A stretch of DNA of 18,723 nucleotides, from the IMG/VR virus record IMGVR_UViG_2778261420_000008; one strand, 5' to 3'. Positions within the stretch are counted from its first letter, which is position 1. Each line of letters begins with the position of its first letter. Of the stretch, positions 1 to 18,723 are shown one piece after another. Source of the DNA: a virus (lineage: Duplodnaviria > Heunggongvirae > Uroviricota > Caudoviricetes). Both the position numbers and the translations under genes were made by a program. The notes under the pieces were generated by a model. The model made no database searches. It was not told the origin of the DNA and saw only the letters and a list, made by a program, of their open reading frames with translations.

Positions 1-330
1 GGCGTAAACCTTACGCCGGACCACCGTTCCGCCGACCAGACTCTGCAGATCTTCCGCCATCCCGGTGATCATGCCGTGCAGGTTAGAGACCGTCAGTGTC
101 GGACGGGCAGCACTGCCCTTGCCGTTCATCTCAAATCCACTCCCCTGAATGGGATAGGCCTGATACTGCCGACTCTGCCAGGTGACAGACTCACCTTTTT
201 CGTTCTGCTCATTACAGAAAAAGTAGCGATCCCCGCCTACCTCGGTCAGGTCGATTTCCCAGAGCACCACGCTGGCCGACTGCTCCGCACGAATGCATTC
301 ATTCAGCGTTTCCTGTTGTATGTCCTGCAT
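1..330 (-). CDS. minor tail protein L (lambda gpL-like); N-terminal 110 codons only, C-terminus lies beyond the window start
   Basis: Manual translation of the minus strand from ATG at 330..328 gives [72 protein letters not shown]..., open to position 1. This closely matches lambda gpL as I recall it. The start overlaps the gpM stop in an ATGA arrangement. Not in the ORF track because it is truncated by the window edge. Confidence 0.85.
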   Translation of the reverse strand, partial: MQDIQQETLNECIRAEQSASVVLWEIDLTEVGGDRYFFCNEQNEKGESVTWQSRQYQAYPIQGSGFEMNGKGSAARPTLTVSNLHGMITGMAEDLQSLVGGTVVRRKVYA

Positions 331-668
331 CAGATCACCACTTCGTCAAACTGACACGAAAAATCGGTATAGGTGATATGTTCTGTCGCTGACCACGTTC
401 GACACACCACTCTGATTTTTCTGTTAATACCCGGCGGGCGCCAAAAAAAAGATTTATAGCCTTCATGCCGGGCTAAAAATTTTTCAAATGAATCACGTTC
501 ATTCGCCTCAACTTTGAAATCACAGGTGAAAACGCGCAGAGAATGATTAAGTCCATTTGGACTTCGTTGCTCATAACCATCGCCAAATCTTACAGTTTTT
601 ATCGATGGTTTATTTTCTGTTTTCATTCCATCCTCTGGTAACCAGTGAAATTCTTCCGTATTAGCCAC
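330..668 (-). CDS. minor tail protein M (lambda gpM-like), 112 aa, GTG start
   Basis: Track ORF 330..668. The protein contains [15 protein letters not shown] and a C-terminal FDEVVI, similar to lambda gpM (VRFGDGYSQRAP..., EFEQVVN) from memory. Start codon at 668..666 is GTG with GGGG 6 nt upstream; N-terminal FHWLPEDGM aligns with lambda FRWKVKPGM, supporting the upstream start. Overlaps the tape measure stop by 8 nt. Confidence 0.85.
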
Positions 669-3600: not shown

Positions 3601-3894
3601 GACAAGAAATTCATATTCTTCTTTATCAATAAGCCCTTTATCGAAAAATTTCTTTAATTCAGAATAGCGTCGACCGACAGTATCAATTGCGGCACCAACT
3701 GGATCAATAGCTGCTTTTAATTTTGCGAGCGCGTTCTTCTCATCTTCTGTTGCCTTAGTCACTTTCCCTGCGCTATTTGCAGCAGTTTCCCCAGCCTGCG
3801 TCATTTTGACTAATGAGGAGGTCAGATTGTCAGCATTATTTTTCGCTCCAGTGCTATCAATAATTATTGCGAGACGCGAGGTTTGCTCTGCCAT
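661..3894 (-). CDS. tail tape measure protein (lambda gpH-like C-terminal two thirds with an N-terminal repeat extension), 1077 aa
   Basis: Track ORF 661..3894. The segment [43 protein letters not shown] resembles lambda H ([41 protein letters not shown]) from memory; C-terminus [16 protein letters not shown] also resembles lambda H. Long coiled-coil-rich protein directly upstream of gpM and gpL. AGGAG lies 7 nt before the ATG at 3894. Confidence 0.9.
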
Positions 3895-3912
3895 TTATTA
3901 AAACTCCTGACA

Positions 3913-3939
3913 ACAAAAAACCCACCGCGAAGTGGGTTT
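3913..3939 (-). terminator. intrinsic-terminator-like hairpin 22 nt upstream of the tape measure start codon
   Basis: Minus-strand RNA reads GAAACCCAC-UUCGCG-GUGGGUUUUUUGUUGUC: a perfect 8-bp stem (AAACCCAC/GUGGGUUU), 6-nt loop, then a U-rich tract, followed by the AGGAG ribosome-binding site and ATG of the tape measure gene. Confidence 0.45.
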
Positions 3940-4059
3940 CAGGCGACATAATAGTAGATATAGCGATTACGAGGCCACGCAATGCTTTTCTCCAGGAGCA
4001 TCATCGATTTAATTAAAGACACCATCACATCTCTGTAACAGAGTGTACGTAATTAACAA

Positions 4060-4817
4060 CTACACACACTGCTCCTGAAAATACTGGTCATCCAGTGCAA
4101 AGATCACTGCTTCAAATTCATCGCGCTCAATCAATACCGGATGAGTGGCTAAATATTCATTTATCTCTGTCAGAGATAAAGGCAAAGGCACCCCAGCCAT
4201 TCCAGCATAACGTCGGGCACGGGATATTACCGAATAGGCGTACAACAACTCCTTAAGCACCGGGTCTATTTCTGGTTCCGGTATCGGTGGCAACCTGAGT
4301 TTTTCTCGCTTCCATCTTGCCTTTTCCCCCCTTTCTCCCCCGAACTCCGATAACCACCGCTGGGCAGCTATGGCTTTTTTATCGTATCCTGCTTCTGCTG
4401 CTCTTTACCCTGGGCGATGCTGGCTGCTTCTGCAAGGATCTGCCAGTACAACTCTGGATTCTGCTTAAGCAGCGCGATCCCTCGTTCTGCCGTATATTCC
4501 AGTGCAACCTCAACACCATTAACCAGTTCACCAACCCCTTTCCAGTCTTTCAGCAGATAACGAGCGGCATTATCAATGAGTAAATCATCAACAGAATCCA
4601 CCTCGGAAACCTTTGAAATATCAAACTCCTTCGTTCCGACGTGCAAACTGGCATCCATTTTCTCAATGTGGCGACGGATTAATGCATTACGGGAGCGATA
4701 CTGATCGTTATCGCTGCTTGCCACCAACAGTTTTAACCCGTCTACAGGTTTTAAGTCCTTCATTGGCGTAAACCAGCGTTCTCCACCAATGATAATTTTC
4801 TGATTAAGAATAAACAT
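4060..4817 (-). CDS. tail assembly chaperone long form (lambda G-T-like fusion) made by a -1 frameshift at 4374..4380
   Basis: The zero-frame ORF 4368..4817 ends QDTIKKP-stop. The -1 frame is open from the slippery site through ...KKAIAAQRWLSEFGGERGEKARWKREKLRLPPIPEPEIDPVLKELL... to the stop at 4060 (verified codon by codon for 4261..4380). Position between major tail protein and tape measure is the canonical G/GT location. Confidence 0.7.
4368..4817 (-). CDS. tail assembly chaperone short form (gpG-equivalent), 149 aa
   Basis: Track ORF 4368..4829. The preferred start is the ATG at 4817..4815 (MFILNQKIIIGG...) because GAGG lies 7 nt upstream, whereas the track start at 4829 has no ribosome-binding site. 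Ends in the slippery heptamer context. Confidence 0.75.
   Translation of the reverse strand: MFILNQKIIIGGERWFTPMKDLKPVDGLKLLVASSDNDQYRSRNALIRRHIEKMDASLHVGTKEFDISKVSEVDSVDDLLIDNAARYLLKDWKGVGELVNGVEVALEYTAERGIALLKQNPELYWQILAEAASIAQGKEQQKQDTIKKP
4374..4380 (-). promoter_or_regulatory. programmed -1 ribosomal frameshift slippery heptamer A_AAA_AAG
   Basis: Minus-strand codons ...ACG ATA AAA AAG CCA TAG: the heptamer A AAA AAG sits two codons before the zero-frame stop, and the -1 frame continues open for about 105 codons. Same heptamer class as the E. coli dnaX frameshift site. Confidence 0.7.
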
Positions 4818-4877
4818 CCATAACCTCATTCAATGCGTCCCCCTGTAGGGCAGTACCACAGGAGGAATAACGGAAAA

Positions 4878-5840
4878 TCAACTAATCGCCTCAGCACTGG
4901 CTTTTGCGATCACGGCAGCCGGGGAATTTTTTTTTCTGGTTATCGTAGGTGCTTCATCTGCTGCGGTAATGCTCAATTGAACCTGGATAATGTCGCTATT
5001 ACCCCCATCAGGCCATTCACCTGACACCTGAACCTTCGGGAAACTGAAAGTGTATGCCCCCTCTCCATTCGAAAGCGTGAAGCTGAACGGAACTGTTTCT
5101 CCAGTCAGTGTTTTACTCCAGATTTCCCACGCGGCTTTAGACCATGAAAGCGTCACCGTACCGGACGGTGTAAAAGTAGTCGGAATATTTGCTCCTGCAT
5201 AAGGCGAGCCAGTCCCGATACAACGCTGTGTCTGGAGTTTGTTATCGAACTGAATATCAAAACTGTCGATACAAAAACCGTTACCTCCGGCAACACCATT
5301 CAGGCTTACTGCTGAAACCTCCTTAAACGAATAACGTAGCTTTCCTGCACTATCCACAGGTTCGCCTTTGATAAAATTCGTATCATCGGCCTTTGATTCC
5401 CAGTCCAGTCCGGCAAAGGTTACGGTCGCTGTAATATCGCCGTCGTTAGGGATCTGCATTTTCCATGAGCCAACCTGCGCTCCTCTGACGACAGAGGCAA
5501 TTCCGACATCGGACGCATAGGTCGCCAGAGAAAATGTTATTCGCTCATTCCCCATTGTCAGAGAATCGCCTGACCATTCCGCGCCGAAACAGGATGCAAG
5601 AAAATCATCATGTTGACCCCAGCGAAATTTGGTACCAACATCACCGCCGACATCCACAGTGCCAGGCGTCGCCCCCTGAGCCATCCGGGAGCCACCAATC
5701 TCATTATTTTCGCCTTTATTCTGGGTGGGTTTTACTCCCCAGCTTGTGCGTTTTAATAAACTCCAGTCACCACTTGCTGGCGTAGTGCCTGCAACCGTCT
5801 CCCGGATAAATGCCGAGATAACCTTTGCACCTGAACTCAC
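4878..5840 (-). CDS. major tail (tube) protein, 320 aa, GTG start
   Basis: Track ORF 4878..5840. Start codon at 5840..5838 is GTG, preceded by AGGAGG with 5-nt spacing. Lies immediately upstream of the chaperone frameshift gene, the conserved position of the major tail protein in siphophage tail modules. The sequence is not lambda gpV-like. Confidence 0.6.
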   Translation of the reverse strand: MSSGAKVISAFIRETVAGTTPASGDWSLLKRTSWGVKPTQNKGENNEIGGSRMAQGATPGTVDVGGDVGTKFRWGQHDDFLASCFGAEWSGDSLTMGNERITFSLATYASDVGIASVVRGAQVGSWKMQIPNDGDITATVTFAGLDWESKADDTNFIKGEPVDSAGKLRYSFKEVSAVSLNGVAGGNGFCIDSFDIQFDNKLQTQRCIGTGSPYAGANIPTTFTPSGTVTLSWSKAAWEIWSKTLTGETVPFSFTLSNGEGAYTFSFPKVQVSGEWPDGGNSDIIQVQLSITAADEAPTITRKKNSPAAVIAKASAEAIS

Positions 5841-5866
5841 AGGAGCCTCCTATGTCATTAATTGCG

Positions 5867-6259
5867 CTAGAGCGCGCGATATGGAATTTGAAGATTAAGC
5901 TGGAACCAGCCATTCTTTTCGCCAACGGCTATTGAGGAAACAGCCTGGTAACTGAGACGATCGTCATCCTGAAACTCAAACAGTTCCCGCAATTTATCGG
6001 CTGTCTCAGTAATGAGTTTTGAACCAGAACCTGCGGGGACAAATAACTGAATAATGATTATCCCCGTGCGATAAACAATCGGCCCCGCGCCAATTTCATT
6101 AACTCCAGCCTGCCCGGGAATATTACTTAACCGCGCCCAGATTAACTTACCGGAAGGATCGAACGTTGGCGCGTTCGGATACAATACGTCTTTTCCATCA
6201 ATAATCGTCTGTGCCGTCATTCTGGAAATAACCGTATTTCTGATTTCAGTAAACGTCAT
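5867..6259 (-). CDS. tail terminator / tail completion protein (gpU-equivalent by position), 130 aa
   Basis: Track ORF. ATGA start/stop overlap with the upstream gene at 6256..6259. Size and position between the head-tail joining genes and the major tail gene. Function assigned by synteny only. Confidence 0.5.
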   Translation of the reverse strand: MTFTEIRNTVISRMTAQTIIDGKDVLYPNAPTFDPSGKLIWARLSNIPGQAGVNEIGAGPIVYRTGIIIIQLFVPAGSGSKLITETADKLRELFEFQDDDRLSYQAVSSIAVGEKNGWFQLNLQIPYRAL

Positions 6260-6636
6260 TTGTAAGCCTGTAAAACACCATGAAAAGCGTTGGCATACAC
6301 GCCAGTTGGCGCTTGTTGTGAATGACCGTTTTCAAGAGCCTCTGCATAAGGAAGGTTATTCTGGATATAAATAACTCCGTAATTTGCAGCTTTCGAAATA
6401 ACCCCGATCCCACGCTGAACAGCAATCGTACCGTTCGGATCCACGTTATCAGATATACCAAAATCGGGATGCTGTAACGACACCAGGTTGTTATTTCTGA
6501 AACGTCCGGTATCAACCGGAGCAGCAATATCAATAGCAGTAAGAATCTGAATAGCGATGTAGCGAATCTTCAGCCCTACATCTTCCTCAATCATCCCGGC
6601 AAATATTGACGGTTCTATATCCCATGCCTTTGCCAT
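6256..6636 (-). CDS. head-tail joining protein (HK97 gp10-like by size and position), 126 aa
   Basis: Track ORF 6256..6636, translationally coupled to its neighbours. Assignment by synteny and size; family membership is a recollection, not a computed hit. Confidence 0.5.
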   Translation of the reverse strand: MAKAWDIEPSIFAGMIEEDVGLKIRYIAIQILTAIDIAAPVDTGRFRNNNLVSLQHPDFGISDNVDPNGTIAVQRGIGVISKAANYGVIYIQNNLPYAEALENGHSQQAPTGVYANAFHGVLQAYK

Positions 6637-7020
6637 TTACGCTCTCCTTAACTGGATAGAGTAAACTGATGCGGAAGGATCTACACTTGCTGTAATTACC
6701 TCGTATCGTTGTAACTGCCTTGATACAGGATCATAAATCTCAATAATATGGTCGACAGCTGGTTTATCCGTAACCTCGCATACCAGAGCGGTTAATTTAA
6801 GGTCACCATGCAAAATATTAATCCCATCAATTCTGCCCAGCTTATAACGTGTCAACACGCCTCGCCCGGTATAGATTGCGGTGGATTCGCCGCCAGTTTC
6901 CGTCACAGGATCCCAGTGCCGGTGCGTAACGTAAGAACCAGAAAAATCACTCACGGCGTCCGCTAAATCCTCATCAAAAGCAGCGGCAACCTCTGACTGA
7001 ATCTCTTCACGAAGCCCCAT
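6637..7020 (-). CDS. head-tail adaptor / head closure protein, 127 aa
   Basis: Track ORF 6637..7020, packed against neighbours with 0 to 1 nt spacing. Synteny-based call. Confidence 0.5.
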   Translation of the reverse strand: MGLREEIQSEVAAAFDEDLADAVSDFSGSYVTHRHWDPVTETGGESTAIYTGRGVLTRYKLGRIDGINILHGDLKLTALVCEVTDKPAVDHIIEIYDPVSRQLQRYEVITASVDPSASVYSIQLRRA

Positions 7021-7415
7021 TATCCCCCCCTCACAACCCTGACTTGTGAGCGACTAAGTCCGTACGGTTTCAGCAGTGCTATCGCAAGCTGTAAATCGGG
7101 TTCAAGCAATGCAGTGCTGTTTGCTGGCAACTCAGAAAATGATTTCGATACACTGACCCCGTCAGCCGACACGGCTTTACTGATAACAACGCCAGAATCA
7201 TTTTTCTGCTGAAACAACTTACCGAATGAGGCAATTCTGGCTGCATATGCTCCCGCAAGTTTTACCTCTTCCGGAATACGGGATGGGTTAATTTTCAGGT
7301 TGAAGCCATTAAGCCAGGCATTAGCCATTAAAACAGCTTTATTTTTAGCGTTCTCACTCGTCCAGGCGTTCCCAAACGCATTATCAACGTCATCACAGGT
7401 CACGTAAGTGATCAT
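7020..7415 (-). CDS. head-tail connector protein (gp6-like by position), 131 aa
   Basis: Track ORF 7020..7415. GGAG lies 7 nt upstream of the ATG at 7415. First gene of the head-tail joining block after the capsid gene. Confidence 0.5.
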   Translation of the reverse strand: MITYVTCDDVDNAFGNAWTSENAKNKAVLMANAWLNGFNLKINPSRIPEEVKLAGAYAARIASFGKLFQQKNDSGVVISKAVSADGVSVSKSFSELPANSTALLEPDLQLAIALLKPYGLSRSQVRVVRGG

Positions 7416-7418
7416 GTG

Positions 7419-7595
7419 TTACTCCTGAGTTTTCCAGCCCATAGCCTTCCAGTTGTCAACTTCATCAGGATGAACATTAGCGATAGTTGGTGCGCCGGGA
7501 AACATCTGATAATCGGTCACCATAACCACTAACTCAATTTGCGTTTTTTGTGCGGCTTCACGCTGTGCTCTTTGCTCTTTAGTTAATCCGGCCAT
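7419..7595 (-). CDS. small hypothetical protein, 58 aa (not in the ORF track)
   Basis: Manual translation gives MAGLTKEQRAQREAAQKTQIELVVMVTDYQMFPGAPTIANVHPDEVDNWKAMGWKTQE. GGGGGG lies 3 to 4 nt before the ATG, and the stop TAA is 3 nt before the ATG of the next gene (TAACACATG), suggesting translational coupling. Below the track length cut-off. Confidence 0.4.
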   Translation of the reverse strand: MAGLTKEQRAQREAAQKTQIELVVMVTDYQMFPGAPTIANVHPDEVDNWKAMGWKTQE

Positions 7596-7604
7596 ATGCC
7601 CCCC

Positions 7605-7627
7605 ATTAAAAATGGGGCCGAAGCCCC
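7605..7627 (-). terminator. intrinsic terminator immediately after the major capsid gene
   Basis: Minus-strand RNA GGGGC-UUCG-GCCCC (5-bp all-GC stem, UUCG tetraloop) followed by AUUUUUAAU, starting 11 nt after the capsid stop codon at 7638..7640. Confidence 0.5.
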
Positions 7628-7637
7628 GTTTGAATGT

Positions 7638-8777
7638 TTAACCAAGAATCAGACAACCATGTGCCGGCTTCACTGATGAAACACCCCATGCCAGTCCAAC
7701 TTCATAGCGCACCTGGCGATACTGACGATACAGTGCAATCTGGAACGTAATCCCTGAAATCGGGTCCGTAACATTCATTACATCATCAGCATTATCGCCA
7801 CCTTCCGGCATTGCCGGAGTACGGGATGCCAGCAGAAACGCGTTGCGATCAAACGCCATATTTGCCGTAAAGGCCCCAACAACTGTGATGGCAGTATCAT
7901 CGGCCAGATCCTGACGCAGTCCGGGCGCTGCAAGAGTAATCAGATTGCTGGTCGCTGCTGCCACAACATACTGATTCGGATCACCAGCGAACGTAACAAT
8001 CTGACCTGCAGAAATACTCCCCGAACCAGTATCAATGGAAATAAGAACATCGCCTTCTTTTTTCTCTCCATTCACGAGATAACCAGTTGCAGCAACCTTT
8101 GGCGCTCGTTTCACACCTGCCGAACTGTGAATATTGAATCCCTCCAGACGCCCCAACACGCCCTCACGCAGTAGCTGTTCAGTGCCGGATTCATTCACTT
8201 TAAACAATACAGACTGTTTTCCGCGCAAATTAGCAATGGCAGTGGAGCCAAGCACCATCTGCAGATCGGTTGTCGGTGCGCCGTTATCCTCCAGAACCTG
8301 ACGAGCCAGAGCAGCATCAGAAAGATCATCTTTAACACCAAACGGCGTTGTCCCTGCGGTTCCCACGGCGCGGGAAGCACCGAAATACAACGCACCAAGA
8401 TCAGCCTCAACCTCGTTTGCAAGGGCGCGAAAAGCCTGCTTGAACTGATCAGCCAGAATGGTGTTGTAAGTCCCTGAAGGGCCAAGAGCCAGTTGTTCTT
8501 CACCATTCCATTTAACCGGTGCCATTTTGGATTTAGTAATTTTTACATCAACAGTGCCAATATTTTGATCACCGGTATTCGGAGCTGACGGCCCCGGTAC
8601 GATATCTTCGGTTTTCGCCTCAGGCGCAACTGGCGCGGTTACCGTCTGATCTTTTGCTGCGGCGTCAGCTTTTACGTTTTTTGCTACCGCAGGGATAAAA
8701 CCTACCTGCTCACGGGATACAACATCCAGGGCGGTATAAATAGTCGGGATCAACCCGGTCAGGGTATTTCCAGCCAT
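7638..8777 (-). CDS. major capsid protein, 379 aa
   Basis: Track ORF 7638..8870, but the preferred start is the ATG at 8777..8775 (MAGNTLTGLIPTIY...) with AAGGAA 9 nt upstream. The longer track start would overlap the scaffold gene. Lies after portal, minor head and scaffold genes, with a terminator downstream as is typical for a highly expressed capsid gene. Confidence 0.75.
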   Translation of the reverse strand: MAGNTLTGLIPTIYTALDVVSREQVGFIPAVAKNVKADAAAKDQTVTAPVAPEAKTEDIVPGPSAPNTGDQNIGTVDVKITKSKMAPVKWNGEEQLALGPSGTYNTILADQFKQAFRALANEVEADLGALYFGASRAVGTAGTTPFGVKDDLSDAALARQVLEDNGAPTTDLQMVLGSTAIANLRGKQSVLFKVNESGTEQLLREGVLGRLEGFNIHSSAGVKRAPKVAATGYLVNGEKKEGDVLISIDTGSGSISAGQIVTFAGDPNQYVVAAATSNLITLAAPGLRQDLADDTAITVVGAFTANMAFDRNAFLLASRTPAMPEGGDNADDVMNVTDPISGITFQIALYRQYRQVRYEVGLAWGVSSVKPAHGCLILG

Positions 8778-8875
8778 AATTAAATATTCCTTAAAAATTT
8801 GCGTAATTGTGAATAGATGGAGTAATGAGCTATCCAGCCCTGACACCAGCTCCCATCCGGAAGCTGACAAATGTG

Positions 8876-9640
8876 TTAATCAACGATTGTGATACCGTCT
8901 TTCAATGCGTTTTGCTTACCTGCAACATCCAGTGCATCAAAAGCAGAGCGTTTCATCGTTTTCTGACCAATATCATGCTGTGTCGGACGGGAGCCGCCGC
9001 CATTGTTGCCACTGGCTTTCAGGATGTAGTCTTTCTGAGGGTAATTTTCGACAAGGAACTCCAGCGCCTCATCAAACTGCGCCAGTTCGCCAGGCTTCGC
9101 GCGGGAATAAATTTTGTTGCCGGAAGCGTCATAAGCAACGATCTTCCCTTCTTCCACTTTGAATGCCTGCCCGAAGCGGGCTTGTAATAAATCTGCCGGG
9201 ATCGCAATTTTATCGGCAATATATTTTGAACCCGCAAAACTACCGCCAATCATAGAATCGTAAAGCTGCGTCTCCAGCATCTGAGAGCGTTGCTTTTCTT
9301 CATCTAATTGCTGCTGAAAATTTTTCGTAATTTCTGCCTTAACCTGGTCAACCTGTCCCGCATCGATCAGCTTTTTCTGGTCGATTTTTAACAGCATTTC
9401 CAGTGCCTCGATCGCCTTCTTCGGGTCTTCGATAGCGGCAAACTTAGCCAGTTTTTCCTCTGCAGCTTCTTTAGCCAGGCGATGATTTTTTGCCTCGCCA
9501 TTAAGCTCTGTAATTTTTTTTATCGCCAGCGGTGCATCGAAGCCGATTTCTTTACCATCGTCGTGCACATAAACTGGCAGGCCAGCAGTATCAATTTCTG
9601 CGTATTGTTTTCCGTTAATCTCGACCGTTTTCAGTTTCAT
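8876..9640 (-). CDS. capsid scaffolding protein (putative), 254 aa
   Basis: Track ORF 8876..9712; the preferred start is the ATG at 9640..9638 (MKLKTVEINGKQYAEID...). Charged, helix-prone sequence (EEKLAKFAAIEDPKKAIEALEMLLKIDQKK..., EEKQRSQMLETQ) directly upstream of the major capsid gene. Confidence 0.55.
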   Translation of the reverse strand: MKLKTVEINGKQYAEIDTAGLPVYVHDDGKEIGFDAPLAIKKITELNGEAKNHRLAKEAAEEKLAKFAAIEDPKKAIEALEMLLKIDQKKLIDAGQVDQVKAEITKNFQQQLDEEKQRSQMLETQLYDSMIGGSFAGSKYIADKIAIPADLLQARFGQAFKVEEGKIVAYDASGNKIYSRAKPGELAQFDEALEFLVENYPQKDYILKASGNNGGGSRPTQHDIGQKTMKRSAFDALDVAGKQNALKDGITIVD

Positions 9641-9696
9641 ATTAGTACCTGGTTTAAGTCTTCCGACAGTTACGCTGCTCACCATCCGGATCGCAG

Positions 9697-9725
9697 CAAT
9701 AAAAAAGGCCACCCGAAGGTAGCCT
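9697..9725 (-). terminator. intrinsic terminator between the minor head protein gene and the scaffold gene
   Basis: Minus-strand RNA AGGCUACC-UUCG-GGUGGCCU (8-bp stem including one U-G wobble, UUCG tetraloop) followed by UUUUUUAUUG, about 20 nt after the stop at 9745..9747. Confidence 0.6.
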
Positions 9726-9744
9726 GTTGTAATAAATGATTTAT

Positions 9745-10860
9745 TTAAATCCCTGCTTTTCTGAATACCTGTGCATCACGCTCACGGAGTTGCTTCAGCG
9801 TCAGCCATTCGCCTTTATCGGTGTAAAATTCATCTGGCGACATACCGCCATCCCGAATCAGCTTTGCCCGGGTTTCCCCCACAATCTGTTTTTGTCTGGT
9901 GTAAGGCTGACGCAAAAACCATTCCCTGTAGGTTGTATCTCCGGCCACCACGCCATCCATGCTGGCCCGCTCAGCCGGGGAAATATCACGAACATCAATA
10001 CCCAGTTCCTTCGCTGATTTCAGAATGAACGTTTCCGTTGAGCGGCAGCAGAAATGAATTTTTCCCGGCCCATGCAAATAAGGCACACTGTGACCTACAG
10101 GTTTATTATCCAGCGTATATTTGAGGCGATCCCTGATTCGACATTGTGGCGTAGTACGATTATCAAGCGTTGATAACCATTGCTTACCCTTAATCAAATC
10201 ATTATTCGCGCTGGCAAAACTCTCACGGGCAGTAGCAGCAAGATGTCCAACCGCTGTTTTTGCAATGCTGGCCGCATTAGCCCGGCTCATCTGCAATGCA
10301 CCATCCTGAAATCCCTTGCTGACATGTCCCCGAATTTTTCTTGCGATCTGCTCATTGGTATCCCCCAGCAAAAAACCCTGACGCACCGTATTTGTTATGC
10401 GTCTGAGCCGATCCGCCTCAAGATCCAAGGCCCACTCACTGAGCAGTCGTCCCTGGAATGGTCGCGCCATTGCAGCGGCGTAAAGTGCATCAGAAGATAT
10501 ACCAACCAGAGGGTGAACATCAGCAACAAAATCAGGTAGCAGAGAATCAAACAGACTTAACTGATAACCAGCCTCATAAATTGCCAGCTCGTTCAGCTCT
10601 CCGGAGAGACTGGTAAACATGCTGTTAATAGCAGCGCGGTTAACCTCTCTGACACTCGCCAGAAGTGACTCCAGGCGCGTAACGGTAAAACTACCAGGAT
10701 CGAGGCTGTCCAGTGCTACCAGCAGGCGAGCTGTAAGCTCCGCATCGCTGTCATTCAGTATTTTCACCATTCTGGCAGCCACACCAGTGCTATAGCGGGA
10801 TATCCAGACTGCATGAGCAATTGATTCATCACGCAGCCGTTCATTCACGGTTTGCATCAT
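9745..10860 (-). CDS. minor head / head morphogenesis protein (Mu F / SPP1 gp7-like), 371 aa
   Basis: Track ORF. Lies immediately after the portal gene with a 20-nt overlap, the typical position of Mu F/SPP1 gp7-family proteins. Family assignment from recalled sequence character and synteny, not a computed profile hit. Confidence 0.6.
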   Translation of the reverse strand: MMQTVNERLRDESIAHAVWISRYSTGVAARMVKILNDSDAELTARLLVALDSLDPGSFTVTRLESLLASVREVNRAAINSMFTSLSGELNELAIYEAGYQLSLFDSLLPDFVADVHPLVGISSDALYAAAMARPFQGRLLSEWALDLEADRLRRITNTVRQGFLLGDTNEQIARKIRGHVSKGFQDGALQMSRANAASIAKTAVGHLAATARESFASANNDLIKGKQWLSTLDNRTTPQCRIRDRLKYTLDNKPVGHSVPYLHGPGKIHFCCRSTETFILKSAKELGIDVRDISPAERASMDGVVAGDTTYREWFLRQPYTRQKQIVGETRAKLIRDGGMSPDEFYTDKGEWLTLKQLRERDAQVFRKAGI

Positions 10861-12247
10861 TGATTTCCATCAACATTACACTCTGATTTTTTAATTCATC
10901 GATCACATCCTCTGGACGGGAATCCTGATCGATAAATTTCAACGCCTGCAACACCCGAACCGCATCAATCTGACGTATATCACCGCCCTGACGCAATGAC
11001 TGAACAGCCAGCGCGGAGGATGAGTCAAACACCTGGGCAGATACATCCAGTTCAGTGCGCACATCCACATTGCCACCGCAACTCTCTCCGCTCCATTCCG
11101 CCATTATCTGGAGAATATTATCGAGGGCATCTTCGAGGGAGTTCGCCATTGTATAAAGCGGCGAGTGTTCCTGCATCCGCTCTTCATTAGTCTGATCAAC
11201 AGATTTGGTGGATGTATTTTCAGCCCGCAGAAGTTTAGCGCCGGCATGACGCATCTGATTTTCCAGCTTCTCAAGTGATGTTTCGCCAGATTCTATCGCT
11301 GCGCCACTATGTTCAACATATTCGAGGCCATTTTTTGTTCTGTCCTCAAAAATCGTAGCCGTGGATGCACCAACCGTCAGTTCTTCATTCCTGTCCAGCC
11401 CGTAGGCCACCAGCAATGGAACGCGGGCAACATGAAGAATATTGTCCTGCTCGCTCTGGCTTTGCCAGTGCTTAATATTCAGCAAGCCAAGATTAAGCAA
11501 TGGCGGTGTACCACGCATAAACCCTGTTTTCTTCGTATACAGTGTTACCAGAGGAATATCATCACGGCTGGTATTCCATGACTCATGAAGCATCCAGACA
11601 GATTCGCCATTAGTACCTTCGCTGCGTCGATAAATTTCTACTCGACGGGGCATAATATGGCGGATCTGCTCCACCTTCTTCTGCCCGAAATCATCACCAT
11701 CAATAATGATGACCTCTTTTATACGCAAATCAGTGAGAACAACTTTCCCTTTTTCAACTTTCGATTTCCATCCAATAACCTGGCGTGGATTCAGCATCGT
11801 AACGTACGGGCGACCACCGGCCGCGTTTTCATCGGCTTTTGTCCGAATCTCGTTCATATCCGTTCGTGGATAGTCCACCAGCGCATGTGCCACACCATAC
11901 TGAAATGCGAGACTGAAAAATTGCTGCGCCCACACATCCAGTCGGCTCCCCTCCATGTCGATATTTTCTGCATATTCCCTGATTTTTTCCGGCGTTTCCT
12001 CACTCAATACTGTCGGCTCTGCAAATATGCGCCCAATATTTTGTTTGATGCTTTCTTCATACACAGGAAGTAACGTAGCCACAGACAGGCGTTTTTTATA
12101 AGCGTCTTCATCTTCATTAGGCCATTTGGGGAGATAATTTTCCCCCTGCCTGCGCATTTCAAGCGTACCGCCCATCAATGCGTCGTTAATATCCCACGCC
12201 TCCAGCATATCGTTATAGTCGAGGTTGGGTGTTGATATATCAGCCAT
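10841..12247 (-). CDS. portal protein, 468 aa
   Basis: Track ORF. Directly follows the large terminase gene (stop TAA, 2 nt, then ATG), with a size typical of portal proteins. Synteny-based. Confidence 0.7.
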   Translation of the reverse strand: MADISTPNLDYNDMLEAWDINDALMGGTLEMRRQGENYLPKWPNEDEDAYKKRLSVATLLPVYEESIKQNIGRIFAEPTVLSEETPEKIREYAENIDMEGSRLDVWAQQFFSLAFQYGVAHALVDYPRTDMNEIRTKADENAAGGRPYVTMLNPRQVIGWKSKVEKGKVVLTDLRIKEVIIIDGDDFGQKKVEQIRHIMPRRVEIYRRSEGTNGESVWMLHESWNTSRDDIPLVTLYTKKTGFMRGTPPLLNLGLLNIKHWQSQSEQDNILHVARVPLLVAYGLDRNEELTVGASTATIFEDRTKNGLEYVEHSGAAIESGETSLEKLENQMRHAGAKLLRAENTSTKSVDQTNEERMQEHSPLYTMANSLEDALDNILQIMAEWSGESCGGNVDVRTELDVSAQVFDSSSALAVQSLRQGGDIRQIDAVRVLQALKFIDQDSRPEDVIDELKNQSVMLMEINDANRE

Positions 12248-12249
12248 AA

Positions 12250-13551
12250 TTAAATCCGAAGTGATGTGACTCTTCCGGTCGGTTTGACAATAGGGAATTG
12301 CTTAACGATGAAATAACCTCCGGCATCATTCGGGTGATCATTGCCAGATTTTTTATCAGGCTCCCCCTTATCATCCCAGACCTGTTGCTCCAGAGATTCG
12401 GCATATACCGGACAACGCTTCACATTAACTTTATAGCGACGCTCACCATTGGCATTGCAGAACATTGCATTCATTGAGTTAACGCGATCTTTTACTGGCG
12501 GGTTCGAGCTGTTCACCACAACGTTAAAACCTGCCTGCTTAAGCTGGGCTATATCCGTCGTACTTGCGTTACTTGATTTTCTGGAATCTCCGGAAGCATC
12601 TGGATAAATATAAATCTCCCTCACTTTCCGGTAATCATGCCCGTCATACAGCCAGAAGCGTTCTTTAATGAGGCGGATCATATCCGGCGTATCGTAGGCA
12701 TTGATGATTTCAGTTACCGCACATGGAAGCCCCAAACGCAGCACATGGACGATTCCCGCCATCTTTCCAACGTTAAAATCCATCCCAATATAAATCGGCT
12801 CCCCTGGCTGCTCCACTTCTTCGCAATTATTCAGTTTCCGGTCAAACTGATGGTAAACAGTACCACTTGTCAGGTTAGTAAACCGTCCTAGAAGATAGGC
12901 TTTAATCAGCTCTGGAGGGTATGATTCAAGAAGTGAAGGAATGTAATCTGCTGGCAGGTTCTTTTCATTATCGAAAGTAGATGCCTGCACCAGACCATAC
13001 AGTGAGGCCAGCTCTGTTTTTTCACGCACGGCTTTAACAAACTGCTCGTAGACAAATTTGAATCCTTCCGGCGTGGTTGTAACGTCAATACCGTTGCGAA
13101 GTCCATCAATCTTATAACGCATACGCGCAATTATCTTGCGCCACGCCGTTCTGGCTTTTTCCTTCGGCAAAATGTCCAGTTCATCCACCAGCGCATTACC
13201 AATTTTGAAACCGACGATCGTTTGTGGCTTCTCCATCGATCTGCAGATAGTGGTTCCCCGATACTGGCGTCCGTAATAAAAGTGAACCTCTTTATTTCCC
13301 TCATTAATTTTTACGTTCAATCCCCAGTCAGCAGCAACTTCTTCCACTGTAGGGTAAAAAATATCGCGAATTTGGGGATACGTTGGCGCAAAATATCCCT
13401 GATTTATACCTGGATGCTCCCAAATCCCCTTGCATATGCCGCCACACCCAACCCATGTTTTGCCCGAGCCAAAACCAGCAATATAGGCTTTAAATTTATG
13501 GGGCATTGAAAGAAATCGCGCCTGAGGCACATTAAGCGTCGGAGAGATCAT
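12250..13551 (-). CDS. terminase large subunit, 433 aa
   Basis: Track ORF 12250..13560. Walker A motif AGFGSGKTW near the N-terminus and a Walker B-like LVDELD. Preferred start is the ATG at 13551 (MISPTLNV...) because AAGGAG lies 8 nt upstream; the track start at 13560 is GTG with no spacing. Overlaps the small terminase by 20 nt. Confidence 0.85.
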   Translation of the reverse strand: MISPTLNVPQARFLSMPHKFKAYIAGFGSGKTWVGCGGICKGIWEHPGINQGYFAPTYPQIRDIFYPTVEEVAADWGLNVKINEGNKEVHFYYGRQYRGTTICRSMEKPQTIVGFKIGNALVDELDILPKEKARTAWRKIIARMRYKIDGLRNGIDVTTTPEGFKFVYEQFVKAVREKTELASLYGLVQASTFDNEKNLPADYIPSLLESYPPELIKAYLLGRFTNLTSGTVYHQFDRKLNNCEEVEQPGEPIYIGMDFNVGKMAGIVHVLRLGLPCAVTEIINAYDTPDMIRLIKERFWLYDGHDYRKVREIYIYPDASGDSRKSSNASTTDIAQLKQAGFNVVVNSSNPPVKDRVNSMNAMFCNANGERRYKVNVKRCPVYAESLEQQVWDDKGEPDKKSGNDHPNDAGGYFIVKQFPIVKPTGRVTSLRI

Positions 13552-14626
13552 CTTCATCACTCCTTAATCTGGCATCAACCACATTAATATTGATCGCCAC
13601 AGGCTGGGGATGTTCATTATCCTCCACCGTTTCGATCTCTTTGCGCAGCTTCTGGTTCTCTATTCTGCGCCGTTCAATTTCCAGTTCCTGTAGCCGCTTA
13701 TCTGCACATAATGCCCCGCCAGCAGAAAGCAAACGCAACAATTCACGCCGGGCGGCAGCCTTATCCTCCAGCAGGATCTCAACACCGTATTTTCCGAGCT
13801 TTGACCCTGCATATAATTGCCGCGCATCCCCATCAAGCAGTGTGGTATCAGCCATATAAAGCTGTCCTGTTCCCTCACCGCAGCACTTCGGGCAATCAGG
13901 ATTGGGTATGGCGTTATCAACAAAGCCGAGGCCTCCATATTCCGGCTCGGGTTTACCATCTCTGGAGGCCTGTGCCGCAGCCTTATCGAATTCTGCAATA
14001 TCACGCCACTGGTAGAGATGATTCTCGCCCCAGCAATAACGGCAGTTAACACGGCGAAATTGTGCCAACTGATTGGGGTCGGCCTGGACAATGGCCATCA
14101 ACTGGCTCACCAGTAAATCCAGGTCTGCGGTATAGCGTTTCTGGTACTGATTGCGGAAGTAGCTGATAGCACGATAAACCCTGGCATTTCTAAGCATACG
14201 GCTGGCGTTGCTGTTAGCTGTCGCACCTTGCCCCTCATAACCAGCCAGTCGGTATGCCTCTGTCGGCTTTTTCCCCTGAGCAACCAACATGGCGAATTTT
14301 GCCTGCTGGTCAGAAATACCGAATTCATCGGGGCAGAACGAAATTTCTTCCGTGTCCCCCTCAATCAGGAGTGCATCGGATACAGCCTTTTTTTTCTGAG
14401 ATTTTCCGTTCTGCCTTTGCGCAGTCTGCGCAGTTTTTTTTCGCGCACTTTTTTGCGCAGTTTTGCGCATTTCTTTCTGCGCATTTTTCGGAGTTTTTTT
14501 GATGTAACGACGGGCTGTTGCGTAGTTCAGTCCCCTTGCTTCACACCATGCCACCGGAGATATACCGGAGCGGGTGTATTCAGCAATATACTCCTGCTGC
14601 AACGCCCCCCAGTCCGGTCTGCTCAT
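13532..14626 (-). CDS. terminase small subunit (N-terminal HTH-like region, central Terminase_2-like motif, C-terminal Cys-rich putative zinc ribbon), 364 aa
   Basis: Track ORF. The central EAYRLAGYEGQGATANSNASRMLRNARVYRAISYF resembles the small-terminase signature I recall; the C-terminal part carries CRYC...CPKCC. Sits immediately upstream of, and overlapping, the large terminase gene. Contains a lysine-rich low-complexity linker encoded by the TGCGCA repeat cluster. Confidence 0.7.
   Translation of the reverse strand: MSRPDWGALQQEYIAEYTRSGISPVAWCEARGLNYATARRYIKKTPKNAQKEMRKTAQKSARKKTAQTAQRQNGKSQKKKAVSDALLIEGDTEEISFCPDEFGISDQQAKFAMLVAQGKKPTEAYRLAGYEGQGATANSNASRMLRNARVYRAISYFRNQYQKRYTADLDLLVSQLMAIVQADPNQLAQFRRVNCRYCWGENHLYQWRDIAEFDKAAAQASRDGKPEPEYGGLGFVDNAIPNPDCPKCCGEGTGQLYMADTTLLDGDARQLYAGSKLGKYGVEILLEDKAAARRELLRLLSAGGALCADKRLQELEIERRRIENQKLRKEIETVEDNEHPQPVAININVVDARLRSDEDDLSDA
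14418..14483. repeat. cluster of six palindromic TGCGCA-type hexamers (five exact, one CGCGCA), each followed by a T-run, inside the small-terminase coding sequence
   Basis: Exact TGCGCA at 14418, 14427, 14454, 14464 and 14478; CGCGCA at 14442; spacings 9 to 15 bp. On the coding strand it encodes the basic linker KNAQKEMRKTAQKSARKKTAQTAQRQ. Confidence 0.8.
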
Positions 14627-14629
14627 CAG

Positions 14630-14881
14630 TTAGTCCTGATTTTTATCCACCCTGAGTAGTTCGCGCAGAGCAAAGGCATCCCCTTTTCTGGCAAGCTTAA
14701 ACAATGCCGCTCGTAACTCGGCTTCACCTTTCGCTCTGCCCTTACGGATGGCCGCATAAAAATCTGTCATTGCTTCCCGATTTTCTTTCAGTCGGTTCAG
14801 ATCAACATCCAGAACGTCAGCGATTTGTTGTGCAGTCATCCGGCACGCTGCCAGAGACTCGACTTTCGAATACGGAATCAT
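14630..14881 (-). CDS. small hypothetical protein, possible HTH DNA-binding / packaging accessory protein, 83 aa
   Basis: Track ORF. GGGGGTG lies 5 nt before the ATG at 14881, and the stop is 3 nt before the small-terminase ATG. The segment MTAQQIADVLDVDLNRLKE looks like a helix-turn-helix. Overlaps the 3-prime end of the upstream gene by 65 nt in another frame. Confidence 0.5.
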   Translation of the reverse strand: MIPYSKVESLAACRMTAQQIADVLDVDLNRLKENREAMTDFYAAIRKGRAKGEAELRAALFKLARKGDAFALRELLRVDKNQD

Positions 14882-15749
14882 TTGTCACCCCCATTGATAT
14901 GCAGGGTGTCTTCTTCCTGTATTTTTCGTGAAGGATTTTTACTGCAGCGTTGTTCCAGGTGACCTGATGGTGAATGCGTTTATGGCTGGCACCCATCAGT
15001 GAGATTTTTACGCACGACGGCGAATACATGACGGAGTAAAAACTTTTAACGTAGGTTCCGGAATCCAGATACAGCTCGGTCATTCCGCCGCTGTTTTTCT
15101 GCGTCTGTTTCTGCCCTAACTGGACAGCACCGATCGTCATAAACAATTCACCACAGCGACCGAGATTCGTGTACGTATTCACATCCTCGTTAATGCGCCC
15201 CATGAATGAGAACGGTCGATCAACCGAACAGATAAAGCTGTTCATTGCCTTGCGTTTCACCCACGAAGCATGGCCGCCATTGTCACCAAGAAAATCCCCG
15301 CCCTGCGACATAGCGATGGAAAGCGCGGGTATTGATTCGTAATACGCCAGCATTTCAGAAAGGATCGCATCCAGTTTCCTTATCGGGAAATAGGCCTGGT
15401 CATAGTTGCGATCCACCCGAAACTGGAACTCGTGATAATCATCATCGAGCTGAATGAAGTATTTACACCCGACCAGTTTTGCCAGGTCGAAACAGGCATT
15501 ACGGGCGTAAAAAATTGAGCGGCGATCACCAAAATTATCGGCTTCGTCAAAACGACTGGCAATATCGGCTTTGGAAAATACCAGCACCTGTTCACCAAAT
15601 TCAGCCATGTACTGATGCCGTGTCTTATCTTCATCATCAACAACGATAAAAATTTTCCCGGTATAGCCAGCACGACGCAACGTCCGGTAAGTCAGAACTT
15701 TGTCCGGTCGCCCGTGAGTCAGAATAAAGGCGCAAAAATCATCACGCAT
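14817..15749 (-). CDS. soluble GT-A-like (family 2-like) glycosyltransferase-like protein, 310 aa; function unknown
   Basis: Track ORF 14817..15773. Preferred start is the ATG at 15749 (MRDDFCAFILTHGRP...), preceded by GGAGGAGGAGGAGGAA. N-terminal FILTHGRPDKV...GKIFIVVDDED and the later KYFIQLDDDY resemble the two acidic motifs of GT-A glycosyltransferases as I recall them. No long hydrophobic segments. May correspond to the K-12 Rac ydaY remnant (recollection). Confidence 0.55.
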   Translation of the reverse strand: MRDDFCAFILTHGRPDKVLTYRTLRRAGYTGKIFIVVDDEDKTRHQYMAEFGEQVLVFSKADIASRFDEADNFGDRRSIFYARNACFDLAKLVGCKYFIQLDDDYHEFQFRVDRNYDQAYFPIRKLDAILSEMLAYYESIPALSIAMSQGGDFLGDNGGHASWVKRKAMNSFICSVDRPFSFMGRINEDVNTYTNLGRCGELFMTIGAVQLGQKQTQKNSGGMTELYLDSGTYVKSFYSVMYSPSCVKISLMGASHKRIHHQVTWNNAAVKILHEKYRKKTPCISMGVTNDSVFESRVSGSVPDDCTTNR

Positions 15750-16536
15750 ATTCCTCCTCCTCCTCCCCGCCATGCATGATCTCCACCATGCGCTGCGTCA
15801 TTCGGACAAATCCATTTTCAATAGCCTGCTGATAATCAATGATCACCAGCGCCGACTCCTCGAAAAGGCACTGAATTTCAGCGGGGGCATGAGCGTAATA
15901 GTCCGCAATTCTGCTGAAATTAAACACTGTGTGACGTTCTGCCGCACACAGGAGGAATTTCTCAATATCAGGATCAAGGGACGCCGAACGTATCCGGCTG
16001 ATCAGCTCCTGAGTTTTCGTATCGTCGTACAGTTCACTGATATCCGGTTTACCGCCCGACGGCTCATAAACAGGCGTATCAATTTTCGTCGTATACGGCT
16101 CCTCCTCATTTCCTGTACCGGGCAAAACATCCGTCAACAGTTCATCAATTTCTGTCGGGATGAAGCCTGTCAGGGAGACATCAAAATCAGCATTGATTAG
16201 GTCCGACAGCTCCATCCGCAACAGATCTTCATCCCAGCCAGCATTCATCGGCAGGCGATTATCTGCCAGGCGGTACGCCTTTTTCTGCTCATCCGTCAGG
16301 CCAGACAGAACAATGACCGGAACAGAATCCATTTTGAGCATTTCAGCCGCCATAACACGACCGTGACCCGCAATAATTTCGCCCTTTTCGTCAATCAGCA
16401 CCGGATTAGTCCAGCCGAATTGCTTAATACTTTCTACCAGTTGTGCCACCTGCTCAGGGCTGTGCGTCCTGGCGTTGTGCGCATACGGTGACAATTCTTG
16501 TAATGGGCGATAGACTATCTTTAATTTCTCGCTCAT
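15742..16536 (-). CDS. ParB-like nuclease domain (ParB/Srx fold) protein with acidic C-terminal tail, 264 aa
   Basis: Track ORF. N-terminal YRPLQELSPYAHNARTHSPEQVAQLVESIKQFGWTNPVLIDEKGEIIAGHGRVMAA carries the GxGR motif characteristic of the ParB N-terminal domain. AAGG lies 8 nt before the ATG at 16536. C-terminus is GGEEEEEYA. May correspond to K-12 Rac ynaK (recollection). Confidence 0.75.
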   Translation of the reverse strand: MSEKLKIVYRPLQELSPYAHNARTHSPEQVAQLVESIKQFGWTNPVLIDEKGEIIAGHGRVMAAEMLKMDSVPVIVLSGLTDEQKKAYRLADNRLPMNAGWDEDLLRMELSDLINADFDVSLTGFIPTEIDELLTDVLPGTGNEEEPYTTKIDTPVYEPSGGKPDISELYDDTKTQELISRIRSASLDPDIEKFLLCAAERHTVFNFSRIADYYAHAPAEIQCLFEESALVIIDYQQAIENGFVRMTQRMVEIMHGGEEEEEYA

Positions 16537-16550
16537 ACAGCCTTGCTTTA

Positions 16551-16587
16551 TGAATAAAACGCACCCCAGCAGCCAGTGCTACTGGGG
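16551..16587 (-). terminator. intrinsic terminator downstream of trkG
   Basis: Minus-strand RNA CCCCAGUAGC-ACUG-GCUGCUGGGG (10-bp stem with one U-G wobble, 4-nt loop) followed by UGCGUUUUAUUCA, about 90 nt after the trkG stop and directly before the ribosome-binding site of the ParB-like gene. Confidence 0.6.
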
Positions 16588-16673
16588 ACGGAGGGGTTGC
16601 TGGTAAAGTTAGGTATTGGATCAATGAGTGAGTCAACATAATATTAAACTCACAATTATAAATCAGCCATATA

Positions 16674-18131
16674 TTAGGAGCGCCAAAAAAAACCTGAAAA
16701 CAATATAATAACAGGATAAATTTCAAGGCGACCAAGAATCATAGCTATGCACATTAAACATTTTGCAATGTCATTAAGCACTCCGAATGACGATGCAGTA
16801 GCCCCAAAACCTAATCCCATATTATTAATACATGCAGCCACTGTTGCAAATGATGTAAGAAAATCATATCCCATACCATTTAACACCAGTATAAAAAACA
16901 CCGTGAAGAGAGTATAAAGAAAAAAGAAACTCCATACAGACCTCATTACACGATCTGTAACTATCTTCCCTCCTACATTTACACTCAACAACGCTCTGGG
17001 ATGAGAAAGCTGATTTATCTCGTGTTTGCTTTGTTTGAAAAGTATAAGAAATCGAAGTGACTTAATTCCACCACAAGTTGAACCTATACATCCCCCAAAG
17101 AAACTTGACAACAGCAAAAACACTATCGTGTGCGTGGGCCAACTTGCATAATCCTGCGTAGCTAAACCATTATCAGTGAGCATGGAGCTGGCAAGAAAAA
17201 ACGAATGAATAAAACTTCCATGCAAGTCATACATACCTATATGCCAGACCTGGAAAGAGGTAACAATGATCACCCCTAAGGCTATTAACAGAAAGAAACG
17301 AAGTTCAATATCTCTGATTAAAGGTTTTATCGTTTTCCTGCTAATAACAATATACCAAAGAGTGAAGTTGAAAGCCGATAGCAGGGAAAAAGAACCAGCC
17401 ACCAGCTCAACCAAATAGTTATTAAAATATCCGATACTCTCGCTATGAGTTGAGAAACCACCAAGCGAAACTGTGGAAATCCCGTGACAAATAGCATCAA
17501 ACAAAGGCATTCCTGCAAGTCTATAACAGACAATACAAGCAATACCTAATAAAGAATAAGTTATCCACAGTGTCCGTGACGTATCGGCCAGGCGGGGAGT
17601 GAGTTTGTCATCCTTAAATGGCCCCGGCATTTCTGACTGATAAAGCTTTGCACCACCAATACCCAATAATGGCAATACAGCAACCGCCAGAACAATAACT
17701 CCTAAACCACCTATAAAATTTAACTGTGACCGATAGTACAAATATGCCCGAGGTAATGAACTAACATCATCAATTACAGTTGCTCCTGTTGTTGTTATTC
17801 CAGAAACCCCTTCAAACAGAGCATCAATGAACGTTAAATTAAGTTCTGAGTCAATCCATAAAGGGAATGCACTAATAACAGAAAACAAAATCCAAAACAT
17901 TACAATTATAATAAACCCATCACGGGTACGTAATTGAATGCCAGATTTCTTAGTTGTATACCACGCTCCGCCACCAATGCAAAAAAATATAACGAAAGTT
18001 ATAAAGAAAACGAACAGGCTTTTTTCTTTATAAAACAATGCTACAACCATTGGTGGCAACATTGAAAGACTATAGAGCCAAACCAGGAACCCACACATAT
18101 GAGTAACAACTCTTACATGAGATGTATTCAT
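16674..18131 (-). CDS. trkG: TrkH-family potassium uptake protein TrkG, 485 aa
   Basis: Track ORF 16674..18149; the ATG at 18131 gives MNTSHVRVVTHMCGFLVWLYSL..., which I recognise as E. coli TrkG. Strong similarity to TrkH throughout (SGITTTGATV, LYQSEMPGPFKDDK, GGFSTHSESIGYF, FGRLEIYP). The track start at 18149 is TTG and rejected. Visibly AT-rich compared with neighbouring phage genes. Confidence 0.9.
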   Translation of the reverse strand: MNTSHVRVVTHMCGFLVWLYSLSMLPPMVVALFYKEKSLFVFFITFVIFFCIGGGAWYTTKKSGIQLRTRDGFIIIVMFWILFSVISAFPLWIDSELNLTFIDALFEGVSGITTTGATVIDDVSSLPRAYLYYRSQLNFIGGLGVIVLAVAVLPLLGIGGAKLYQSEMPGPFKDDKLTPRLADTSRTLWITYSLLGIACIVCYRLAGMPLFDAICHGISTVSLGGFSTHSESIGYFNNYLVELVAGSFSLLSAFNFTLWYIVISRKTIKPLIRDIELRFFLLIALGVIIVTSFQVWHIGMYDLHGSFIHSFFLASSMLTDNGLATQDYASWPTHTIVFLLLSSFFGGCIGSTCGGIKSLRFLILFKQSKHEINQLSHPRALLSVNVGGKIVTDRVMRSVWSFFFLYTLFTVFFILVLNGMGYDFLTSFATVAACINNMGLGFGATASSFGVLNDIAKCLMCIAMILGRLEIYPVIILFSGFFWRS

Positions 18132-18268
18132 ATCTAAATATTCTTTCAATTATAACCACCTTGCTGCAATATTATGATTATACTGTATAAAATTTAACTC
18201 CTCTTAGATCTTACTTCACTGTTCCTTATGAAACAATCATCAAAATGAATCATATTGTAGTTAAGATT

Positions 18269-18673
18269 TTACTTTAAACACTGCTCGGTTATGTATTGCT
18301 GAGCACCTTCAAGTTGGGCCTGCATCATTACCAGTCGTTCCCGGAGGGTGAAATAATCCCGTTCAGCGGTGTCTGCCAGTCGGGGGGAGGCTGCATTATC
18401 CACGCCGGAGGCGGTGGTGGCTTCACGCACTGACTGACAGACTGCTTTGATGTGCAACCGACGACGACCAGCGGCAACATCATCACGCAGAACATCATTT
18501 TCAGCTTTCGCATCAGCTAACTCCTTCGTGTATTTTGCATCGAGCGCAGCAACATCACGCTGACGCATCTGCATGTCAGTAATTGCCGCGTTCGCCAGCT
18601 TCAGTTCTCTGGCATTTTTGTCGCGCTGTTCTTTGTAGGCGATGGCTGGATTTGCCCCTATATTTCCAGACAC
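18269..18673 (-). pseudogene. rzpR: Rz-type i-spanin lacking its N-terminal transmembrane segment (5-prime truncated, likely pseudogene)
   Basis: Track ORF. The protein from [51 protein letters not shown]... matches lambda Rz from memory, but the frame opens with GTG at 18673 immediately after an in-frame TAA (18677..18679). None of the three frames upstream to the window end encodes a hydrophobic segment. Confidence 0.7.
18328..18513 (-). CDS. rzoR: Rz1-type o-spanin outer-membrane lipoprotein, 61 aa, embedded in the +1 frame of the Rz gene
   Basis: Track [27 protein letters not shown]... has a signal peptide and lipobox (VVGC), followed by the proline-rich [15 protein letters not shown], nearly identical to lambda Rz1 from memory. 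Entirely nested in the Rz reading frame. Confidence 0.85.
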
Positions 18674-18723
18674 CTGTTATCACTTAACCCATTACTGGCC
18701 TGCTGCCGCAGATATTCCCGTGG

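Follow-up and report, generated by a model that had tools for sequence, protein, structure and literature searches.

An Anchorless Rz Frame at the End of a Rac-Type Escherichia coli Prophage Contig Is Best Explained by an IS2-Type Insertion

Results

Spanin Genes at the Right End of the Window

The DNA analyzed here (the window) is the entire draft contig NORX01000062.1 of assembly GCA_002521845.1, with a length of 18,723 bp. An Rz-like open reading frame (ORF) of 134 aa is located at its right end on the minus strand (18269–18673, with a GTG start codon at 18671–18673). The translated product matches the Pfam family PF03245 (Bacteriophage Rz lysis protein) with an E-value of 1.9e-53 over profile positions 2–125 of 126. 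The segment from 18269 to 18646 (minus strand) is the 3′-part of an i-spanin gene and comprises codons 30–154, identical to those of the intact allele WP_001082755.1, and the stop codon. This remnant encodes the complete periplasmic coiled-coil domain without the membrane anchor and is 88% identical to lambda Rz over the whole alignment. The nine codons that open the frame (MSGNIGANP; 18647–18673, minus strand) are derived from an insertion sequence (IS) and lie inside its terminal repeat. No Shine–Dalgarno sequence is visible before the GTG codon. An in-frame TAA is found two codons upstream, with a single CAG codon in between.

The N-terminal transmembrane anchor (type II, N-in/C-out) is absent from this ORF. 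The highest Kyte–Doolittle mean for 19 residues is 0.36 in the window ORF versus 2.49 for residues 4–22 of the intact allele, and a hydrophobic run of transmembrane length is missing from all six reading frames over the final 80 nt of the window. The original prediction had described an Rz-like frame that starts at a GTG after an in-frame stop and lacks the transmembrane segment, with nothing hydrophobic encoded in the last nucleotides, and these descriptions are borne out. Judged by its sequence, the window contains part of an Rz gene rather than a functional i-spanin.

The Rz1 o-spanin gene (61 aa; 18328–18513, minus strand) is in the +1 frame of Rz and is contained entirely within 18269–18646. 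Its product is assigned to PF06085 (Rz1 lipoprotein precursor) with an E-value of 2e-19, and the gene has its own Shine–Dalgarno sequence, AAGGAG, at 18521–18526, 7 nt before the ATG. The gene is complete, as had been claimed. Loci in which Rz is intact encode exactly this protein; RzoR of E. coli K-12 differs from it by one residue, and lambda Rz1 shares 92% identity with it. The lipobox LVVVGC with Cys20 is conserved with lambda Rz1 and K-12 RzoR, and lipidation of this residue is predicted only. The proline-rich stretches PPPPP and PPP are conserved with the same two proteins.

Prophage Context

The gene immediately downstream of Rz/Rz1 is the moron trkG (16674–18131, minus strand), which encodes a potassium transporter of 485 aa (PF02386, TrkH; E-value of 5e-145). 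Two additional genes on the minus strand are located between trkG and the gene for the small terminase: an ORF of 264 aa with a ParB_N domain (15742–16536) and the gene for a PF20691 “TAGT” protein of 310 aa (14817–15749). These two could constitute a DNA-modification module. The PF20691 protein is named “GREB1-related protein” by RefSeq in one related locus and “hypothetical protein” in others. The ParB_N ORF is open for 264 codons, yet identical DNA is annotated by RefSeq as a ynaK pseudogene “missing C-terminus”.

Positions 1–18646 of the window match many complete E. coli chromosomes without a break and at 100% identity. In the sister loci that were inspected, the gene order is DUF1367, DUF1364, DUF1133, TolA-like genes, essD, rrrD, Rz, trkG, ynaK, terminase, portal, P22-type capsid, and tail. 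The holin gene essD, the endolysin gene rrrD, an Rz of 154 aa with Rz1 inside, and trkG are contiguous, and the holin and endolysin genes directly precede Rz in the inspected loci with identical DNA. The head and tail genes in the window are identical to those of the uninterrupted sister prophages. The order Rz/Rz1–trkG–ynaK is that of the Rac type, and the Rz part of the window is nearly identical to that of Rac of K-12 (376 of 378 nt). On the basis of this gene order and near-identity, the window prophage is classified as a full-length relative of the cryptic K-12 prophage Rac.

An IS2-Type Terminus Adjoins Codon 30 of Rz

The last 77 nt of the window (18647–18723, minus strand) are the right end of an IS2-type insertion sequence of the IS3 family and are identical at 77 of 77 positions to full copies of 1331 bp. 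This portion contains the last 21 transposase codons and a TAG stop codon (18658–18660), followed by the right terminal inverted repeat, which ends ...GGGGCAAATCCA at position 18647. The same 77 nt align with the right end of the IS in strains MB06173 and NT1N25, ending ...GGAAATATAGGGGCAAATCCA. The matching copies in these two strains are labeled “IS3 family transposase” by RefSeq. The full copies that share this end have a length of 1331 bp, contain a frameshifted transposase gene, and are ~96% identical overall to IS2A of K-12. The segment at 18647–18723 is identical to IS2A at 73 of 77 positions, with four differences. Two readings of the 77 nt are available: one frame provides the last 21 residues of the transposase, and another provides the GTG and the eight further codons that open the Rz-like frame. 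The target duplications at three complete IS copies are 5 bp each: ATTAC in NT1N25, CATAT in MS 119-7, and ATTAC at IS2A of K-12.

The last 574 nt of the window were used as a query against complete E. coli genomes. Hundreds of 100% matches were obtained, all starting at query position 78, and query positions 1–77 were matched only next to genes annotated as “IS3 family transposase”. The 77-nt IS end is present in 4,812 of 5,426 complete E. coli genomes, at up to 41 places per genome. In the intact Rz of 154 aa, base 18646 corresponds to the first position of codon A30 (nt 88), and the homology restarts right at the IS terminus. When the alignment with lambda Rz that had been proposed for locating the breakpoint was made, the break was placed between N29 and A30, just past the transmembrane region. 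The 87 nt that encode the anchor are replaced by the IS end in the window.

The original prediction overlooked the IS terminus in the last 77 nt, as well as the fact that the window equals a full draft contig that breaks off within this repeat. It attributed the missing N-terminus of Rz to gradual decay of the lysis cassette or to a recombination scar left by the acquisition of the trkG moron, an explanation that would account for an Rz frame without an anchor and for a moron directly downstream of it. However, the breakpoint falls exactly on the IS2-type terminus, and no point mutations are found in the remaining Rz or in Rz1 relative to the intact alleles. The trkG gene is on the 3′-side of Rz whereas the lesion is on the 5′-side, and trkG is annotated beside a fully intact Rz in sister DNA that is 100% identical, which argues against a scar from the moron. 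Both proposals are set aside as having almost no chance of being correct.

A scan of positions 18100–18723 for regulatory signals returned two promoter-like sites, with 1.3 expected, and no terminators. Neither of the promoter-like sites is located at the IS–Rz junction, and the scan therefore provides no evidence for an outward IS promoter that drives the remnant. This result is consistent with a report that the right end of wild-type IS2 has no detectable promoter activity (PMC12095673).

The Contig Ends

The IS–Rz junction is found at one end of the contig. The other end (positions 1–330) is located in the gene for minor tail protein L (sister locus excerpt 24317–25015), which is common to lambdoid prophages. 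Since one end is in an IS and the other is in a shared lambdoid tail gene, both are taken to be assembly breaks induced by repeats. A 77-nt overhang at a repeat would be expected if the contig came from a de Bruijn assembler run at k = 77. The N-terminus of Rz, the endolysin gene, and the holin gene are not visible because the contig stops inside the repeat, and their invisibility is not evidence of loss. The lack of hydrophobic coding potential in the last 50 nt is likewise a consequence of the contig end.

The 134-aa chimeric protein was found in a single contig only among ~15 billion proteins. The exact IS–Rz junction had no one-piece 100% match in the 5,426 complete E. coli genomes and was absent from the GTDB representative genomes. 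The peptides expected at the left junction of the IS were predicted for target duplications of 3–7 bp and were looked up in the protein collection. The chimeric peptides of 35, 46, and 47 aa were absent from this collection, and gene callers might skip ORFs this short. The peptides of 30 and 31 aa were present solely as partial proteins at contig ends. Ten such contigs, all from other strains and none from GCA_002521845.1, contain the holin gene, the endolysin gene, and Rz codons 1–30 or 1–31 before they end. The ends of these contigs are spread over 7 nt, follow the intact Rz, and contain no IS bases; they look like generic breaks at a repeat boundary. The span of 7 nt is probably the point at which the Rz alleles of co-resident prophages become identical. 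Many draft assemblies stop at Rz codons 29–31, which often gives rise to database entries for a “partial lysis protein” of 30–31 aa.

The uniqueness of the exact junction to one contig in the collections searched, together with the frequent breaks within a few bases in draft contigs of other strains with no visible IS sequence, would also be expected from an assembly artifact or a subpopulation. The window would then present a minority insertion or a misjoin, and most cells would have an intact Rz. This explanation is very improbable, as the junction carries the exact IS terminus, the 77-nt overlap would fit a real junction processed by a de Bruijn assembler at k = 77, and, in other strains, the cassette contains proven copies of the same IS.

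Insertions of the Same IS in Other Lysis Cassettes

An IS2-type copy is located in rzpD of a DLP12-like remnant in strain NT1N25 (NZ_CP075484.1, locus excerpt 2682–4449) and in eight other genomes, 3 bp from the insertion site in the window. In strain MB06173 (NZ_CM129884.1, locus excerpt 846–3940), an IS2-type copy is inside rrrD and is nested with an IS3 that removed the left end of the IS2-type element. In strain MS 119-7 (NZ_CP146653.1, locus excerpt 5433–6661), the same IS family is found just upstream of essD. The MB06173 and MS 119-7 prophages are otherwise identical to the window. IS insertions in this lysis cassette are recurrent.

The target duplication ATTAC and the bases CTA that follow it are common to the NT1N25 insertion and to IS2A of K-12 in yaiX. 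Together with the distance of 3 bp between the two Rz sites, this coincidence hints at a target preference, although with so few events it is a curiosity. The choice of target by IS2 has previously been linked to DNA curvature (PMC3299598). A broader proposal is that Rz codons 29–32 are a preferred landing site for IS2-type elements and, with the insertions at rrrD and essD, that the lysis functions of prophages are recurrently and possibly selectively disarmed in E. coli while morons such as trkG are kept. This proposal is based on two independent insertions that share their orientation but differ in Rz allele and in prophage, and it is considered doubtful.

Discussion

The best explanation for the anchorless frame is a simple insertion of an IS2-type element in the Rz gene of a Rac-type E. 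coli prophage, as seen at the end of a contig. The probability of this explanation is estimated at about 85%. In the proposed sequence of events, the element of 1331 bp, oriented like Rz, transposed into this gene between nt 87 and 88 (codons N29 and A30). It would thereby part the N-terminal transmembrane anchor (residues ~4–24) from the periplasmic coiled-coil domain. A multicopy IS could not have been resolved by the short-read assembler, and the contig would stop 77 nt into the element for that reason. An accidental GTG in the IS terminal repeat opens the frame, and the window would present only the distal half of a split gene. The insertion appears to be very recent, since the other 18,646 nt are perfectly identical to the sister loci.

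The Rz 5′-fragment on the far side of the IS would be found on another contig of the same assembly, with the endolysin and holin genes upstream of it, and it would be followed by a 5-bp target duplication of GCCAT. The predicted left junction is ...GATAACGCCAT joined to TAGACTGGCCCCC, which would create an ORF of 35 aa (MNRV...RDNAIRLAP). The predicted end of the partner contig is ...CATTACCGTGATAACGCCAT, followed by the left end of the IS, TAGACTGGCCCCC / TAGACTGGCCCCCTGAATC.

A deletion or rearrangement associated with the IS would produce the same right junction. The DNA beyond the IS would then not be the 5′-end of Rz, and the anchor segment would have been lost or moved, either through a deletion next to the IS that the element itself mediated or through recombination of one IS copy with another, perhaps with loss of the endolysin and holin genes as well. 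The lysis cassette would in that case be truly crippled, as in Rac of K-12. The left junction is beyond the contig end; the K-12 prophage lost everything upstream of Rz in the same neighborhood, with ydaW fused to Rz at about codon 7; and the nested IS3 and IS2-type insertions in rrrD of MB06173 have damaged the left end of the IS. However, the K-12 breakpoint is at another position and is without an IS, all of the complete copies of this IS that were examined are simple insertions flanked by duplications of 5 bp, and the identity of the remaining 18,646 nt to loci with a full cassette (100%) indicates a very recent event. A deletion or rearrangement is therefore considered unlikely.

Simple insertion would have consequences for lysis. 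Rz is a type II inner-membrane protein that has one transmembrane domain, at the N-terminus, and an artificial transmembrane domain substitutes for it fully. The role of this domain is thus one of anchoring and of export of the periplasmic domain. If the anchorless remnant is made at all, it would be expected to stay in the cytoplasm, since it has no transmembrane segment, and it could not meet and pair with Rz1. Rz1 alone, even with its own ribosome-binding site, is not a functional spanin. Loss of spanin function in this prophage is likely from the structure of its genes, and lysis by a prophage without this function would be held up at its final (outer-membrane) step. That particles would be assembled and not efficiently released is a reasonable, conditional prediction from sequence. 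Berry and co-workers reportedly found in 2012 (work cited in PMC5295617) that lambda spanin mutants still lyse in shaken laboratory cultures without added divalent cations, and the phenotype here may therefore be conditional as well. Late transcription to Rz1, trkG, and the head and tail genes would have to cross the 1.3 kb IS and may be reduced; a polar effect of the IS on the downstream genes is possible.

Should the insertion prove real and simple, the strain would represent a naturally spanin-null lysogen whose Rac-type prophage otherwise looks undamaged, and it could be used for testing the spanin dependence of release. This dependence is already established for lambda. The insertion would be one more case of an insertion sequence that inactivates a prophage gene, here the gene for the inner-membrane spanin subunit, with little reach beyond the strain. 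It also serves as a warning that the end of a short-read contig in a repeat can mimic a truncated gene and should not be interpreted as gene decay or as missing lysis genes.

Comparison with Known Systems

All of the parts found here belong to known categories: an Rz/Rz1 spanin of the lambda type, an IS2 element (IS3 family), and a trkG-carrying Rac prophage. In its intact form, Rz of this prophage shares 92% identity with lambda Rz, and the architecture of lambda Rz/Rz1 is retained, including the embedded gene in the +1 frame, the transmembrane domain at residues ~4–24, the lipobox Cys20, and the proline-rich region. Unlike lambda Rz, the Rz of the window is interrupted by an IS at codon 30, and its remnant has no anchor and begins with nine IS-encoded residues. 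The downstream neighbor of Rz is trkG here, whereas it is bor in lambda.

The Rac prophage of K-12 (rzpR, rzoR, trkG, ynaK) is of the same prophage type and has the same gene order, and the 376 of 378 identical positions are in the 3′-part of Rz. An N-terminally damaged Rz with an intact embedded Rz1 beside trkG is found in both prophages. The lesion in K-12 is a deletion that fuses ydaW to Rz at about codon 7 without an IS, in contrast to the IS insertion at codon 30 in the window. Descent of the K-12 rzpR lesion from the insertion described here was considered and rejected on the basis of these differences in the position and nature of the K-12 breakpoint. In Rac of K-12 MG1655 (locus excerpt 2253–3145), the Rz homology starts ~140 nt before the annotated start of rzpR, inside the 3′-end of ydaW. 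The last part of the annotated ydaW is thus derived from Rz and is read in another frame. The annotated K-12 Rac stretch contains no holin, endolysin, terminase, portal, or capsid gene, whereas the window prophage keeps its head and tail genes.

The element in the window resembles IS2 (IS2A of K-12; 1331 bp, insC/insD) in the length of its full copies, in its terminal sequences, in a transposase expressed by programmed frameshifting, and in its 5-bp duplications. It differs from IS2A in being a variant, with the four differences in the terminal 77 nt, and only these last 77 nt are present in the window. The closest counterpart of the insertion is that in rzpD of NT1N25, where the same IS variant (77/77) is found in the same orientation relative to Rz and splits the anchor from the periplasmic domain. 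The NT1N25 insertion is in a different Rz allele (AITYKAQ-type) and in a DLP12-like remnant near intD and a tRNA-Arg gene, followed by iss. The target duplication is ATTAC in NT1N25 and is predicted to be GCCAT in the window. The NT1N25 rzpD insertion and the window insertion are independent events.
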